Assembly: GCA_048939015.1 (NCBI GenBank) | Contig: JBHLPW010000035.1 | Coordinates: 1-53,115, forward strand | Source: Promethearchaeota archaeon | GTDB lineage: Archaea; Asgardarchaeota; Lokiarchaeia; Sigyniarchaeales; SOKP01 | DNA: 53,115 nt | Reading direction: 5' to 3' | Part shown: positions 16,003-42,181 of the stretch, piece after piece | How positions within the stretch are numbered: the first letter of the stretch is position 1 | Layout: each line of letters begins with the position of its first letter | Position numbers and translations under genes: made by a program | Notes under the pieces: generated by a model | The model's input: the letters and a program-made list of their open reading frames with translations, nothing else | Told to the model about the DNA's origin: nothing | Database searches by the model: none

Positions 16003-16740
16003 TTATTTTTCAAATTTATAATTTTTGAGGAGGATTTTTTTGAACGATTTAGGTAGAAAAAATCCCAGATAGAAAGAAAAAGAACTGAACACTAATATTC
16101 CTCTATATATTAAGAGAGAGATGATATTTAATTCAAGAAAAACGTCTAAGACAGAGCCTAAAATGAATGAAACAAACCCTAATAAAAGAAAAATTCCTTT
16201 TAATCTAATTTCGGGGGTGTTTATCTTTAAAGATTCTCTAGCAAAAAGAATTCCAGTTATAGTAAGTATGATAGCAACTTCGAGGAAAAACAATACCAAA
16301 AAAGATTTGTATTGAGCATCTATTAGCCCTACCCTTTCAACAATAACCTGAGGCTCTGTAATCAGATAATAAAATGAAAAAAATTCGAATAAAAGTGCTT
16401 GGATTAAAAATATCCATATAACTAATTTTTGAAATTTTTTATATTTTAACTCTGTAAAAGCAACCATCCACAAAGTTATAGCTATTGGAGTTAAACTTAT
16501 TGAAATAACATAAAATAACTCTATAGCTAAACCATGCCCAGTTAATAAAAGTAGAATAAAGGATATTGAAGGACCCCACCACCCTTCATACATCAATAAC
16601 CAAGTGATCCCTGCAAAAATAAGAACTCTTTCTTTATGTTGCAAATATTTAGAAGCTATTTTTAACCCAGTTATAATTGATACTATTGAGATTATCAAAC
16701 TGGAGAGTCCATTTGTTACTAATAAAGCATCATAGTCCAT
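16003..16740 (-). CDS. 7TM membrane protein, paralogue of 38116..38841
   Basis: Seven hydrophobic segments; shares ExWW, PxAIxLWxxAFTE and SLKxxxPExxLKG motifs with the paralogue. Confidence 0.85.
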   Translation of the reverse strand: MDYDALLVTNGLSSLIISIVSIITGLKIASKYLQHKERVLIFAGITWLLMYEGWWGPSISFILLLLTGHGLAIELFYVISISLTPIAITLWMVAFTELKYKKFQKLVIWIFLIQALLFEFFSFYYLITEPQVIVERVGLIDAQYKSFLVLFFLEVAIILTITGILFARESLKINTPEIRLKGIFLLLGFVSFILGSVLDVFLELNIISLLIYRGILVFSSFSFYLGFFLPKSFKKILLKNYKFEK

Positions 16741-38115: not shown

Positions 38116-38841
38116 ATGGCATTAAGTCCTATAGACATTATAAACGGAATATTCTCTCTCATTTTTGTTGTATTCTCCTTAGCCATTGGGTTTATTATTC
38201 TCACTAGATACTTTAAATATAAAGAAAGGATTTATTTTTTAGTTGGAGCAACTTGGATATTCATATCTGAACCTTGGTGGCCATCCATGATTTCATTTCT
38301 CATTGCTTTATACAATGATATTGGAATTTCATCTGGGATCTATTTTTTTCTAGGTAATGTATTCATTCCCTTAGCGATAATTCTTTGGTTATTAGCCTTT
38401 ACAGAATTTTTGTACTCTGAAAAGCGTAAATTAATTCTTTCTATATATGCAATAATAGGGGCGATTTTTGAGATATTATTCTTCATTTTTCTGTTTTTAA
38501 ATCAGAATTTAATAGGAGAATTAAACGGTCCTGTGGATGTGAATTATAAATCTTTTATTATGGTCTTTTTAATAATATTTCTATTGATTGTTGTAGTAAC
38601 AGGCTTTTTATTTGCAAATCTTTCTTTAAAATCAAAAGATCCAGAAGTAAAGCTCAAGGGAAAACTCCTAATCATTGCTTATATAGCTTTTTCTGTTGGA
38701 GCGTTATTAGATGCATCTATTCCATTTAATCCAGCGACGATAATTATAATTAGATTAATCTTAATCATAAGCGCACTTTGCTGGTATGGAGGATTTTTAT
38801 TGCCAAAATGGATGAAAAAATTCCTTCTAAAACATAAATAA
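38116..38841 (+). CDS. 7TM membrane protein, paralogue of 16003..16740
   Basis: Seven hydrophobic segments; EPWWPS, PLAIILWLLAFTEF, SLKSKDPEVKLKG, GFLLPKW. Confidence 0.88.
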   Translation: MALSPIDIINGIFSLIFVVFSLAIGFIILTRYFKYKERIYFLVGATWIFISEPWWPSMISFLIALYNDIGISSGIYFFLGNVFIPLAIILWLLAFTEFLYSEKRKLILSIYAIIGAIFEILFFIFLFLNQNLIGELNGPVDVNYKSFIMVFLIIFLLIVVVTGFLFANLSLKSKDPEVKLKGKLLIIAYIAFSVGALLDASIPFNPATIIIIRLILIISALCWYGGFLLPKWMKKFLLKHK

Positions 38842-38944
38842 TATAATCTTTCAATCTTTCCTTTTTTTTGTAATATTCAGATATTATCCAGATTCATATT
38901 TTATTTCATCTTATTCTTTCTTAATTAGTAATCTAATTCTAAAA

Positions 38945-39472
38945 ATGTTAAGTTCTGAAATAAGTAAACTCGTTAAATTAAGCTTTATAGGTGCTCCAGC
39001 GGTAGGAAAAACCACAATGTTAAAACTTTTATCTGAACAAACGATAGATCGATTATACCTTCCAACTCATGGTTTAGATCTAAAGACCGTTAGATTTGAA
39101 GATTATTATTTAAGAGTATGGGATTTTGCAGGTCAGAATAGTTATCTTAGGACATATTCAAAAGATTACCTTCTAGGATCAGATATCATCTTCATTGTGT
39201 CTGACTCAACTCCCCGAAATGTATTAAACTCAAGGGAACTTATTAATTATGCCTGCCATTTCGTTGGAAAGGAATGTCCCATTATTGCAATTGCAAATAA
39301 ACAAGATCTAGTTGAATCAGAAGGACGAATGGATGTAAAACGTGTTGAAGATATACTGCATTGCAAAACTTATGGTTTAACTGCCATAAATCCATCAGAA
39401 CGGAAAAAATTATTGAACATTATTAAAAAAGAATTAGATAAAATAGCAATAAGGAGGAGATTAAAGGATTGA
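38945..39472 (+). CDS. Small GTPase (Arf/Roc/Rag-like mosaic)
   Basis: G1 GAPAVGKTT, G2 PTHG, G3 WDFAGQ, G4 NKQD, G5 LTA. Confidence 0.92.
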   Translation: MLSSEISKLVKLSFIGAPAVGKTTMLKLLSEQTIDRLYLPTHGLDLKTVRFEDYYLRVWDFAGQNSYLRTYSKDYLLGSDIIFIVSDSTPRNVLNSRELINYACHFVGKECPIIAIANKQDLVESEGRMDVKRVEDILHCKTYGLTAINPSERKKLLNIIKKELDKIAIRRRLKD

Positions 39473-40029
39473 AATTTGTAGAAAGTGAAATGTTTGGAGC
39501 CGCATTGATTGGATTTGATATGATTGATGGTCCTTTTCTTAAATGGAAAAAAGAATTTTCAAAAGTAGATAAAGGAGTAAATTTAAATGACTTTGCCATG
39601 AACTTTTATTTATCATTTCGAGGTGGAAATGATGCAGTGAAAAAGCCGCGAGCTATATTATATGATGATTTTTATATTGTTGCTTTTCCAAGAGATTTAG
39701 AACTATGTTGTCTTTTTATGAAACCTCAAAATGTTGATAATAATATTAAACAGTTAAATAAAATTGCTACACGAATTATTACTGAAATGGAAGACAACGT
39801 TGAAGATGAAGAAGAACCTGATGTAGATTCTGATGAGAATACTATTGAGGAAATAATGAGATTAATCCCTAATTTATTAAATGGAACACAAATGACGACT
39901 CCAGAACTAAGAAGGTACTTTCAACTAAGTAATTCACAAGTTTGGAAAGTAATGTCTGAGTTAGAAAATTCTAAAAAAGTTGAACGCGCTGCTAAAAAAG
40001 GAAGGTCTATACTTTGGACCGCCATCTAG
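39469..40029 (+). CDS. uDENN/longin-like N-terminal domain, acidic linker, C-terminal winged HTH
   Basis: AALIGFDMIDGPFLKW resembles the uDENN FDxxxGP motif; MTTPELRRYFQLSNSQVWKVMSELENSKKVER...W resembles a wHTH; 4-nt TTGA overlap with the GTPase. Confidence 0.7.
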   Translation: MKFVESEMFGAALIGFDMIDGPFLKWKKEFSKVDKGVNLNDFAMNFYLSFRGGNDAVKKPRAILYDDFYIVAFPRDLELCCLFMKPQNVDNNIKQLNKIATRIITEMEDNVEDEEEPDVDSDENTIEEIMRLIPNLLNGTQMTTPELRRYFQLSNSQVWKVMSELENSKKVERAAKKGRSILWTAI

Positions 40030-40061
40030 TCCAATTTTTTCATTTATATCTTTTATTTACT

Positions 40062-40871
40062 TCATCTTACTCGGTGATCCCATTTTCCTATATTTTTAGT
40101 ATAGTAACGTGAAAACATTAAATAACAAATATCAGGTAGATCTTTATCCATTTTATGGATTGTTATATACCTAAGGATATGATTAATCAAAAATATTCCT
40201 ATTAATTCAACATGATAGCTACTCATATTGGAAAGTCTTTCGCCTGAGAATGAAATATCAAGTTCTTCTTTTTCACTCCAAATCAGCTCAACAAAAATTT
40301 GTGGTAATATTTCTCGTTTGATACTCCATTTATCTGCAGTCTTCCAAATAATTGCTCCTAAAAATTCAGATAAGTCTTTTACATCATCTTCTTTCAGTAG
40401 TTTAAAAGGCTCATTTCTTTGTATCAAAACTTTTTCCATCAAATCTGTTTTTCTTCCATAATCTTTTTCAAAAGGATCCTTTTTCTTTAATCTTCTTTCA
40501 ATTAAATCCATAAGAATATCGATATATGTCGCACTATCTTCACCAGGAACCCAGGTTACATGTTTACCTGAGAAATAATATTTAAATTCAGCTTCAACTC
40601 CGTCACCAAATTCATCACCAAAATAAGAAAAGGCCATATGAATGTTTACTTCGGGGAACATTTCAACAGAGATGGTCCAATCCTCGCTAAATCCGATATT
40701 CTCAATTTTTCCTCCGAGATCTTCGATAACTATCCTTTCTAATATACCTTTATCTATATCGATGAATAGAGAATATTTAGAAAGACTGATGTCTTCTAAC
40801 TCTTTTTCATGAGGTCCTCTTACTCCTGTTGCATCAATTTGACCAATTGTCCAATATTTTCGTTTTGACAT
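40062..40871 (-). CDS. Hypothetical protein with two internal repeats, possibly DUF3786-like
   Basis: LGG...WTISVEMFPEVNIHM...FSG and LGA...WSIKREILPQIFVEL...FSG; start taken as MSKRK. Confidence 0.65.
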   Translation of the reverse strand: MSKRKYWTIGQIDATGVRGPHEKELEDISLSKYSLFIDIDKGILERIVIEDLGGKIENIGFSEDWTISVEMFPEVNIHMAFSYFGDEFGDGVEAEFKYYFSGKHVTWVPGEDSATYIDILMDLIERRLKKKDPFEKDYGRKTDLMEKVLIQRNEPFKLLKEDDVKDLSEFLGAIIWKTADKWSIKREILPQIFVELIWSEKEELDISFSGERLSNMSSYHVELIGIFLINHILRYITIHKMDKDLPDICYLMFSRYYTKNIGKWDHRVR

Positions 40872-40885
40872 TATTAGTATAATTA

Positions 40886-42181
40886 TCATTTTTTTTTGAA
40901 TTTTGCTATAAAGAAACCTTCTGTGTGATGTTTAGCAGGAAATAACCGTGCAGTTCCAGGAATTAACATTCCATCAATTTTATAACCTTTATCCGTCCAA
41001 TCAGGGAGTTTCATAGATTCCAACTTATCTATATACTTATTAATTTGATATTCACCTTCTTCAGGATATAGACTGCATGTTGAATAAACAATAATCCCAC
41101 CCGGTTTTAATAAATCTATAGCAGATTGTAGTAGTTTTTCTTGGAGGAGTACGTTTTGATGTAGAAATTTTTCATTCTGTCGCCATTTCAATTCTGGACT
41201 CGTTAAAAAAGCTCCTGATCCTGTACATGGAGCATCTAATAAAATTTTATCAAAGTATTTTTGATACCTCACAGGAAAATCGATACTATCAGTATTTACT
41301 AAATGTACATTCAAAACGTTTAATTGAGTTAATAGATATCTCATTGCAATTGCTCTTTTTGAAAGAAATTCTCCTGCTATAATGTTTCCTGTATTATTTA
41401 AATACTGAGAAATTAGACTTGTTTTTATTCCTGGCGCAGCACACAGATCGCAAATTTTTTCTTTCTTATTAGGTGCTAAAAATTGTATTACTGCTACTGA
41501 TGCTTTATCCTGAAAGAGTAGACTTCCATTTTGGTAAAATTTACTTCTAATAACTTTACCTTTTTCAGTGCGAGGTATCCAGAATAGATTTGGTAAATGA
41601 TTATCTTTATGATAATTAATTCCTTTTTTTTTAAAATCTTCCTCAATGACTGCTAACATTTCCATTGGATTTAGATTAGTAATAAGAGTATTCACACGTA
41701 AGGTAATTTCCAGTGGAATATGCAAACCATTCATAAATTGAAGATTTTCAACGAGAAATTCAGTATTCATTACAGGTAGAAGTTGATCAATCATAAAACT
41801 CGGTATTGCTTCTAAAATACTAATTTTTTCTTTATCTTTTTTATTAACAAGAGCTTTTTCCAATGAAAAATTTCTAATATTTTTTAAAAAACGAATATCG
41901 AATTCTCTTAATTCTTTAATTACGGCTTTCTCAGTAGCATGTTCCCATAATATTCTATAGGTGGCATAAAAATATTTTGGTATATCTGTATTATCAAAGG
42001 ATTTCGATCCTTTTAGTGATTTTCTTACAATATAATTAATTTTATTCCAAAATCGGATGATCTCATTATAATAATGAACAACTGTAGTATTCTTACGCAA
42101 AGTGGATGATAAAACATCAGTGTCTTTATTGAGAAATTTTGATATTAAAGTCAGTGTAGTGTGAACATCTTTCTCTTTAAT
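40886..42181 (-). CDS. RsmB/NOP2/NSUN-family RNA m5C methyltransferase
   Basis: FQDKAS, DLCAAPGIKT, DAPCTGSG, YSTCSL. The frame extends 27 codons upstream of TTG 42100 to an ATT with an RBS. Confidence 0.93.
   Translation of the reverse strand: MKEKDVHTTLTLISKFLNKDTDVLSSTLRKNTTVVHYYNEIIRFWNKINYIVRKSLKGSKSFDNTDIPKYFYATYRILWEHATEKAVIKELREFDIRFLKNIRNFSLEKALVNKKDKEKISILEAIPSFMIDQLLPVMNTEFLVENLQFMNGLHIPLEITLRVNTLITNLNPMEMLAVIEEDFKKKGINYHKDNHLPNLFWIPRTEKGKVIRSKFYQNGSLLFQDKASVAVIQFLAPNKKEKICDLCAAPGIKTSLISQYLNNTGNIIAGEFLSKRAIAMRYLLTQLNVLNVHLVNTDSIDFPVRYQKYFDKILLDAPCTGSGAFLTSPELKWRQNEKFLHQNVLLQEKLLQSAIDLLKPGGIIVYSTCSLYPEEGEYQINKYIDKLESMKLPDWTDKGYKIDGMLIPGTARLFPAKHHTEGFFIAKFKKK

Follow-up and report, generated by a model that had tools for sequence, protein, structure and literature searches.

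A conserved operon of Asgard archaea pairs an Arf-like GTPase with a predicted longin-winged helix protein and shares an upstream box with ftsZ

A stretch of 53,115 nucleotides from a Promethearchaeota archaeon (Lokiarchaeia, Sigyniarchaeales, SOKP01; GenBank assembly GCA_048939015.1, contig JBHLPW010000035.1, positions 1 to 53,115 of the forward strand), hereafter the window, carries an Arf-like small GTPase gene that overlaps the gene of a partner protein, in which a longin-fold domain is followed by a winged helix-turn-helix (wHTH) domain. The two genes form a real and strongly conserved GTPase/longin-wHTH operon, of which no description was found in the literature examined. They are inherited together, and a palindromic box found upstream of them also precedes the cell division gene ftsZ. 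We propose that this two-gene operon, self-contained, transcribed from its own promoter and translationally coupled, would encode an Arf-like GTPase and its cognate partner. The longin domain, which belongs to the GP-motif class, would most likely be the docking platform for the switch region of the GTPase, because of the analogy with every longin/roadblock-GTPase pair studied so far, and by analogy it would act either as a GTPase-activating protein (GAP) or as a nucleotide-state-specific effector. The DeoR/MarR-type wHTH located behind an acidic linker most likely binds DNA, and we infer that the nucleotide state of the GTPase may be coupled to this DNA-bound regulator. The operon is probably expressed with cell division or the cell cycle, and possibly acts there. 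Taken as a whole, from promoter to cell division link, we regard the proposal as evenly poised between right and wrong.

The features of the locus are given below in coordinates of the window, all on the + strand, those of the operon before those that surround it.

38870-38903, +: conserved non-coding element, reading GTAATATTCAGATATTATCCAGATTCATATTTTA; palindrome TAATAT-N4-ATATTA followed by an A/T-rich block
38945-39472, +: Arf-like small GTPase gene, 175 aa; Pfam matches Arf, Roc and Ras, PDB matches Arl3 and Arl2
39453-39459, +: Shine-Dalgarno sequence GGAGGAG, inside the GTPase gene, 9 nt before the TTG start of the partner
39469-40029, +: partner gene (longin plus wHTH), 186 aa
39469-39798, +: partner aa 1-110, predicted longin-fold domain (AlphaFold2 model; Foldseek, VIA and Atlas matches)
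39514-39534, +: partner aa 16-22, FDMIDGP motif (F16-D17-x3-G21-P22) in the beta1/beta2 hairpin
39790-39843, +: partner aa 108-125, acidic linker EDNVEDEEEPDVDSDE, variable in length and modelled with low confidence
39832-40029, +: partner aa 122-186 and stop codon, wHTH, modelled with a confidence of about 90
40035-40040, +: T6 tract, 5 nt past the partner stop codon; possible terminator of the two-gene operon, judging from its sequence
38116-38841, +: open reading frame of a membrane protein with about seven transmembrane segments (7TM), 241 aa; neighbour of the pair, outside the conserved module
38862-38869, +: T8 tract, 21 nt past the 7TM stop codon; putative archaeal oligo-T terminator of the 7TM transcript, judging from its sequence

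A first-pass annotation of this DNA had placed three open reading frames here (7TM, GTPase and partner), and we found them at exactly these positions. The 4-nt TTGA overlap that it reported between GTPase and partner is present behind the Shine-Dalgarno sequence, the TTG start of the partner (39469-39471) overlapping the TGA stop of the GTPase (39470-39472). This start is supported by the alignment, since all 45 aligned homologues open with M/L-[NK]-F. The motifs noted at that time were likewise recovered: WDFAGQ and NKQD in the GTPase, to which GAPAVGKT can be added, and in the partner an FDxxxGP hairpin, an acidic linker and a C-terminal wHTH.

At E<=1e-3 the partner has 501 homologues, most of which share 72-95% identity with it and almost all of which are unnamed proteins from metagenome-assembled genomes of Loki type; such a level of identity is unusually conserved. 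The partner is single-copy in the 4.86-Mb genome of the window, and only 29 clusters emerged when 1.84 billion cluster representatives were searched exhaustively with a profile, indicating a narrow family. The GTPase gene is located directly upstream of the partner gene in every examined locus with a full-length partner, the two genes overlapping or lying within about 21 nt of each other down to 27-37% partner identity. Because of these 501 homologues, and because the pair recurs at every such locus, the association lies far beyond chance. The coupling first suggested from the overlap is borne out by a pair that is kept well beyond the taxonomic family of the window, with GTPases that form an orthologous clade of their own. 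In the distant partner homologues (27-38% identity) the N-terminal domain is kept, and the wHTH is present in most of them, one small group having another C-terminus. A profile of the N-terminal domain detected a single copy each in 166 of 400 Asgard genomes. These include 120 of the 134 genomes of the window's taxonomic family, 13/14, 3/3, 2/2 and 2/2 for further families within its class, and members of several families of other Asgard classes; none was found in four large families (0/31, 0/12, 0/22 and 0/19). No fusion of GTPase and partner was detected among longer proteins (327-2000 aa), which is weak evidence. Proteins 75-80% identical to the partner bear labels ranging over Loki-, Thor-, Odin-, Hod- and Hermodarchaeota, and these labels are probably unreliable.

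The GTPase contains the G1 motif GAPAVGKT (aa 16-23), the G3 motif WDFAGQ (aa 59-64) and the G4 motif NKQD (aa 118-121). Its best Pfam match is Arf (4.7e-16), Roc and Ras matching too, and its best matches among PDB sequences are Arl3 and Arl2. The alignment of its orthologues shows a common G-x-P-x-VGK[ST]T, WDxGGQ and ANKQD, together with the family-specific TDSTPxNVL, so that the family consensus (WDxGGQ and ANKQD) and the copy of the window (WDFAGQ and NKQD) both display the G1-G4 set of Arf type. The protein has neither Gly2 nor a long N-terminal amphipathic helix: its N-terminus, MLSSEISKLVK, places 10 residues ahead of beta1, and N-termini are not conserved among the orthologues. The catalytic Gln is replaced by His in two orthologous GTPases (WDLAGH at L007:2995-3471; FDLAGH at L049:4319-4798, - strand). 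The small GTPases of an Asgard genome number about a hundred, alongside many longin/roadblock proteins, and about 100 small-GTPase open reading frames were counted in the window's genome. In a tree, 22 partner-adjacent GTPases grouped in one clade, with 78 paralogues of this genome outside (support 0.88). The nearest paralogues include proteins in which an N-terminal longin-like domain of about 120 aa is fused in cis to the GTPase; in the window's genome (G000) such fusions occur at C34:9071-9940, C70:28560-29597, C76:9363-10430 and C32:73031-73927 (loci L058-L062), and one of them shows a weak match to Pfam Fuz_longin_1. Alignment of the partner N-domain profile with the N-terminal domains of the nearest GTPase paralogues by hhalign gave a probability of 1.6%, that is, no link at the sequence level. 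An assignment to ArfR or ArfL was considered and not retained; the orthologue in the LCGC14 set is KKN02948.1, a different protein from the published single Loki ArfR, KKK44255.1.

The N-terminal domain of the partner has no counterpart at E<=1 in Pfam or NCBIfam, curated longin and roadblock profiles included. Its profile, built on an alignment (A4) of 33 N-domain sequences down to 21% identity, found nothing relevant among PDB sequences, where a profile of the whole partner found weak matches of wHTH type only (Lrs14-like, 0.034) besides a chance match to LmuA. Structure prediction was more informative. The AlphaFold2 model based on A4 (m5283c58f6f85) reached a predicted local distance difference test (pLDDT) of 80.9, superseding an earlier run on a shallow alignment (A1) in which the domain stood at about 50. 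The model comprises strands at 8-17 and 21-29, a helix at 39-51, strands at 62-64, 69-75 and 78-84, and a helix at 89-110. This order, beta-beta-alpha-beta-beta-beta-alpha without N-terminal helix, is that of longins and not that of roadblock proteins. Each of the 50 best matches in Foldseek is a longin or roadblock chain (E about 5e-3 to 6e-2), among them AP-3 mu, TRAPP subunits, LAMTORs, DENND1A/B, COPI, CPLANE, the SEA complex and a Lokiarchaeal longin. A VIA scan, which is independent of Foldseek, returned nearly exclusively the longin/roadblock superfamily within its best 50 (Z 8.3-5.7), including MglB, Mon1-Ccz1, BLOC-3 and C9orf72-SMCR8. The neighbours in the ESM-Atlas are TRAPP, DENND11, an NPR2-like Asgard cluster and zeta-COP. 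On these models and fold matches, a fold of the longin/roadblock superfamily is well supported for the N-domain.

Four residues are invariant among the 33 diverse sequences of A4: D17, G21, P22 and P60. In the model, G21-P22 is located at the opening of beta2, as in longins of GAP type. According to a 2025 study, a GP motif located where the beta1-beta2 loop ends or beta2 starts is specific to the GAP longins C9orf72, SMCR8, FLCN and NPRL2 together with a single class of Asgard longins, and the longins of TRAPP, adaptins and DENND lack it (PMC12290439). In C9orf72 the residues W33-D34 and G38-P39 are essential (PMC12290439), and the spacing from F16-D17 to G21-P22 in the partner equals theirs. 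By this analogy, the motif speaks for a GAP or an effector rather than for a guanine nucleotide exchange factor (GEF). The first-pass annotation had read this domain as longin/uDENN; its longin half, with the FDxxxGP hairpin, agrees with the model and the fold matches, whereas uDENN in the narrow sense was not borne out, since the longin is not followed by DENN/dDENN and DENND proteins are reported to lack the GP motif (PMC12290439). A complex prediction with the GTPase alignment (A5) and A4 scored 0.00 without controls, and speaks neither for nor against binding.

The linker (aa 109-121) is modelled with a pLDDT below 50, and the C-terminal domain (aa 122-186) with one of about 90, as an H1-beta-H2-H3-wing fold. 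Foldseek aligned this domain with ZitR, AdcR, CzrA, HlyU and NolR, which are of MarR/ArsR type, and with eS25 and Zalpha (probability 1.0, E 2e-3 or weaker). The recognition helix reads SNSQVWKVM; its start is invariant, as is the K-x-G-R of the wing. One orthologue, P0129, passes Pfam HTH_DeoR (33.6 bits for a cut-off of 21) as well as HTH_11, and another, P0126, reaches 21.0 with HTH_27, whose cut-off is 22.2. The confident model and its MarR/ArsR/DeoR-type matches thus uphold the C-terminal wHTH. The same matches give no support to the ESCRT-like output that had been offered as an alternative to DNA binding: no ESCRT-II chain figures among the 50 best Foldseek matches of the wHTH, the partner carries a single winged helix and not the tandem of EAP20/EAP30, and the sole trace is an EAP30 match of E=0.055 in one orthologue. 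In a variant group (P0143, P0146, P0154-P0158; L047:3755-4324, - strand; L007:3471-4061), which retains both the longin domain and the GTPase gene upstream, the wHTH is replaced by a conserved segment of about 70 aa with GLGPKR, which looks helix-hairpin-helix-like by eye. Profile matches to helix-hairpin-helix families are not significant (Pfam IMS_HHH and HHH_5, E 0.02-0.17; PolX motifs, E about 1), and this identity was not retained.

The conserved element upstream of the GTPase gene can be read, from its sequence, as a promoter with an operator-like box. The palindrome TAATAT-N4-ATATTA occupies 38871-38886, at -74 to -59 from the GTPase ATG. The element is conserved in 26 loci of the window's taxonomic family, including genera without the 7TM neighbour, while its flanks have diverged. 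Across 14 loci from other families, the closest match to the box in the 130 nt upstream of the GTPase gene shows 1.64 mismatches on average. Dinucleotide shuffles give 2.91 +/- 0.17, with 0/300 reaching the observed mean, and <=2 mismatches are found in 12 of these 14 loci for a mean of 3.7 loci in shuffles; the related loci are non-independent, so the true significance is lower than these figures suggest. The exact palindrome is rare, occurring 13 times in the genome in its N4 form, and 35 times in N4-5 form for roughly 18 expected, and the 31-nt element as a whole is unique.

The same box is located 77 nt before ftsZ in the window's genome (G000 C27:25561-25576, locus L064/L066). In 30 ftsZ orthologues from three genera (including loci L067-L095) it lies at -76 to -88, with 0-1 mismatch in 27 of them, and is followed by a conserved ATTAATTCTAATTTTT block. 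Because this conserved palindromic box is common to the ftsZ promoter, the operon is probably co-expressed with cell division; a shared box points to such co-regulation and not to private autoregulation. The box before ftsZ was not discriminating in distant or partner-less families, where windows of 300-460 nt gave 1-2 versus 2-4 mismatches, and the upstream region of the second FtsZ paralogue is only loosely box-like. Exact copies also lie 64-91 nt before a Roadblock/LC7 gene, grpE and the gene of a CxxCxxCC-domain protein; exact sites were recorded at C61:15442 (before L116), C12:82639 (before L114) and C27:21872 (before L115) of G000. Boxes with one mismatch precede two longin-GTPase fusion genes (L119 and L120), of which one is Ras-like and the other, which weakly matches Folliculin, RagA-like. 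These additional copies may reflect a regulon, or chance in A/T-rich DNA. In two genomes without the partner (G002 and G100; L107 and L108), a small cdrS-like ribbon-helix-helix gene precedes ftsZ, and in L108 a box-like TAATAC-CCGG-ATAATA (2 mismatches) is found upstream of it.

On the other side of the operon, a convergent gene of 275 aa without Pfam family (40062-40889, - strand) ends at 40062; at almost every locus of the window's taxonomic family, it keeps synteny with the pair and with an RsmB-like methyltransferase gene. As for the 7TM gene, a hydropathy scan of its product shows six clear hydrophobic segments and a weaker one (aa 39-65), that is about seven transmembrane segments, and no Pfam or NCBIfam family was found for it. 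It belongs to an unnamed, Loki-specific, multi-copy family, which numbers 9 copies in the window's genome and at least 17 in some relatives; besides the one discussed here, the window holds another (16003-16740, - strand), and the others lie at 7 further places in G000.

Several observations weigh against our proposal and bear on its rivals. The fold scores of the N-domain are middling (Foldseek E about 5e-3, VIA Z <=8.3), so that the superfamily is resolved and the subclass is not. N-domain-only homologues of 130-150 aa, which have no adjoining GTPase gene and no winged helix, occur in three distant Asgard families (loci L051-L054; genomes G117, G115, G116 and G397). No arginine of the N-domain is conserved family-wide, which makes a classical arginine finger mechanism doubtful; of the two candidates that we considered, R61 is invariant only within the window's taxonomic family, being L, T, Q, K or M elsewhere, and the position of R75 holds R, K, Q, H, D, E or V. 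A catalytic mode like that of MglB would be possible in this situation, by analogy. The lack of a conserved arginine finger also agrees with the idea that the partner is a GEF or a scaffold of TRAPP, Mon1-Ccz1 or Ragulator type, as most longin/roadblock platforms are, including some of its best fold matches; this is nevertheless improbable, given a GP motif reported to be GAP-specific (PMC12290439). For the C-domain, the window's own wHTH stays under every Pfam cut-off (FaeA, 14-17.2 bits for 20.7), and the wHTH domains of NPRL2 and NPRL3 serve protein contacts, so that the fold is no proof of DNA binding. A wHTH devoted to protein contacts only is a serious rival to DNA binding. In its full form, the partner would work like NPRL2/NPRL3, its longin domain acting on the GTPase and its wHTH serving dimerisation or protein contacts alone, in a cytoplasmic, membrane or cytoskeletal switch. 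Besides the sub-threshold wHTH, this would account for the NPRL2-like layout and GP motif, for an upstream box probably bound by another factor, and for a 72-95% identity of the partner over many genomes, which fits many protein contacts. It has against it the resemblance of the domain to MarR, ArsR and DeoR DNA binders, with P0129 passing HTH_DeoR, the invariance of the recognition-helix start and of the K-x-G-R wing, and a variant group in which a helix-hairpin-helix-like segment (a match that is not significant) stands in place of the wHTH. On balance this picture is a tentative possibility that we consider doubtful.

If the wHTH does bind DNA, as we favour, its target has to be considered. 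The partner might bind the box of its own operon or of ftsZ under the control of the GTPase, forming a GTPase-to-DNA switch of the Asgard cell cycle, a scenario that we think unlikely. The box stays constant even at loci whose recognition helix differs wholly (SNSQ-W-K versus S-x-x-T-I-R-R), which also weighs against our proposal; because of this constancy, and because the box is found before ftsZ as well, another factor would be expected to bind it. Private autoregulation, with the wHTH binding TAATAT-N4-ATATTA before its own operon and the GTPase state gating this binding, would fit a conserved palindrome at -59 to -104, suitable for a dimeric wHTH, within a 31-nt element found nowhere else in the genome. 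The same box before ftsZ in three genera, its exact copies before a roadblock gene and grpE, and again its indifference to the recognition helix make it distinctly unlikely. The full model of the first-pass annotation, in which a 7TM receptor would signal through the GTPase to the wHTH protein, seems highly improbable. The co-oriented 7TM gene does lie 103 nt upstream of the GTPase ATG with the T8 tract between them, as had been noted, and a 7TM orthologue adjoins the pair in genera g1 (co-oriented) and g9, and in loci L001 and L112; there is in addition a weak Atlas lead to HisKA_7TM (score 0.87). However, genera g10, g11 and g12 lack this adjacency, as does every other family; no GTPase gene lies within 2.5 kb of any of the eight further paralogues in the window's genome, and both the T8 tract and the separate conserved promoter element intervene between the 7TM gene and the pair. 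The link to a receptor was dropped, and we consider the 7TM gene to be a genus-level neighbour with its own putative terminator, not a part of the module.

The regulators of Asgard Arf proteins are still to be established (Zhu et al. 2025), and a 2025 paper in Traffic asks which GTPases partner the GP-motif Asgard longins (PMC12290439). Matching GTPases to regulators is made hard by the fact that, in MK-D1, GTPase genes generally do not share operons with those of longin or roadblock proteins (Tran et al. 2024, PMC10933270). The operon described here supplies a ready-matched candidate pair, and with it one possible answer to the question of who regulates whom, while the box shared with ftsZ gives a concrete physiological hypothesis. 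If a GTPase-to-DNA switch were true, it would tie a GTPase/longin module of eukaryotic type directly to the control of cell division genes, in the closest prokaryotic relatives of eukaryotes.

The first-pass annotation knew of no characterised equivalent. This holds for experimentally characterised cases, but the layout itself is familiar, longin plus wHTH being that of NPRL2/NPRL3 (PMC3747258, PMC3521125), and NPRL2-like longins and longin-GTPase fusions of Asgard archaea were reported in 2020/21 (bioRxiv 10.1101/2020.10.19.343400). The partner may be viewed as a minimal counterpart of NPRL2/NPRL3 (GATOR1; Npr2/Npr3 in yeast; GAP of RagA/B), with which it shares the longin plus wHTH layout and a beta1/beta2 hairpin bearing the GP motif, that complex acting on a small GTPase of the Arf/Rag side (PMC3747258, PMC3521125, PMC12290439). 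It differs by a length of 186 aa instead of about 400-600 and by the absence of a conserved arginine finger. With one wHTH in place of two or three and no Pfam NPR2/NPR3 match, the architecture is analogous and membership of the family is not supported. Moreover, no DEPDC5 partner is known here, the GTPase is Arf-like without a roadblock C-domain, and the genes form an operon. The C9orf72-SMCR8 pair (CSW complex, an Arf GAP) offers another likeness, since F16-D17-x3-G21-P22 mirrors W33-D34/G38-P39 and the target GTPase is of Arf type; as opposed to it, the partner lacks DENN/dDENN domains and carries a wHTH, and no second, arginine-bearing subunit was identified. MglA/MglB and the prokaryotic operons of a GTPase and a Roadblock/LC7 protein also place a GTPase and a partner of the roadblock/longin superfamily side by side, MglB being a GAP without classical arginine finger that works as a dimer platform. 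Here, in contrast, the strand order is that of longins, the GTPase is not MglA but an Arf-like protein possessing a catalytic Gln, and the partner has a wHTH. The Asgard longin-GTPase fusions and NPRL2-like longins (Liu et al. 2020/21; Tran et al. 2024) are found in the same organisms and use the same domain families, such fusions being the nearest paralogues of our GTPase, whereas in the present operon the longin is on a separate, translationally coupled protein and is fused to a wHTH. Finally, the Asgard operon of a LAMTOR1-like protein, a Rab-like GTPase and a DENN domain (Liu et al. 2020/21) is likewise a conserved operon uniting a GTPase with regulators of the roadblock/longin superfamily; its GTPase is Rab-like and it contains a DENN domain and no wHTH, whereas the operon of the window joins an Arf-like GTPase to a longin-wHTH partner.

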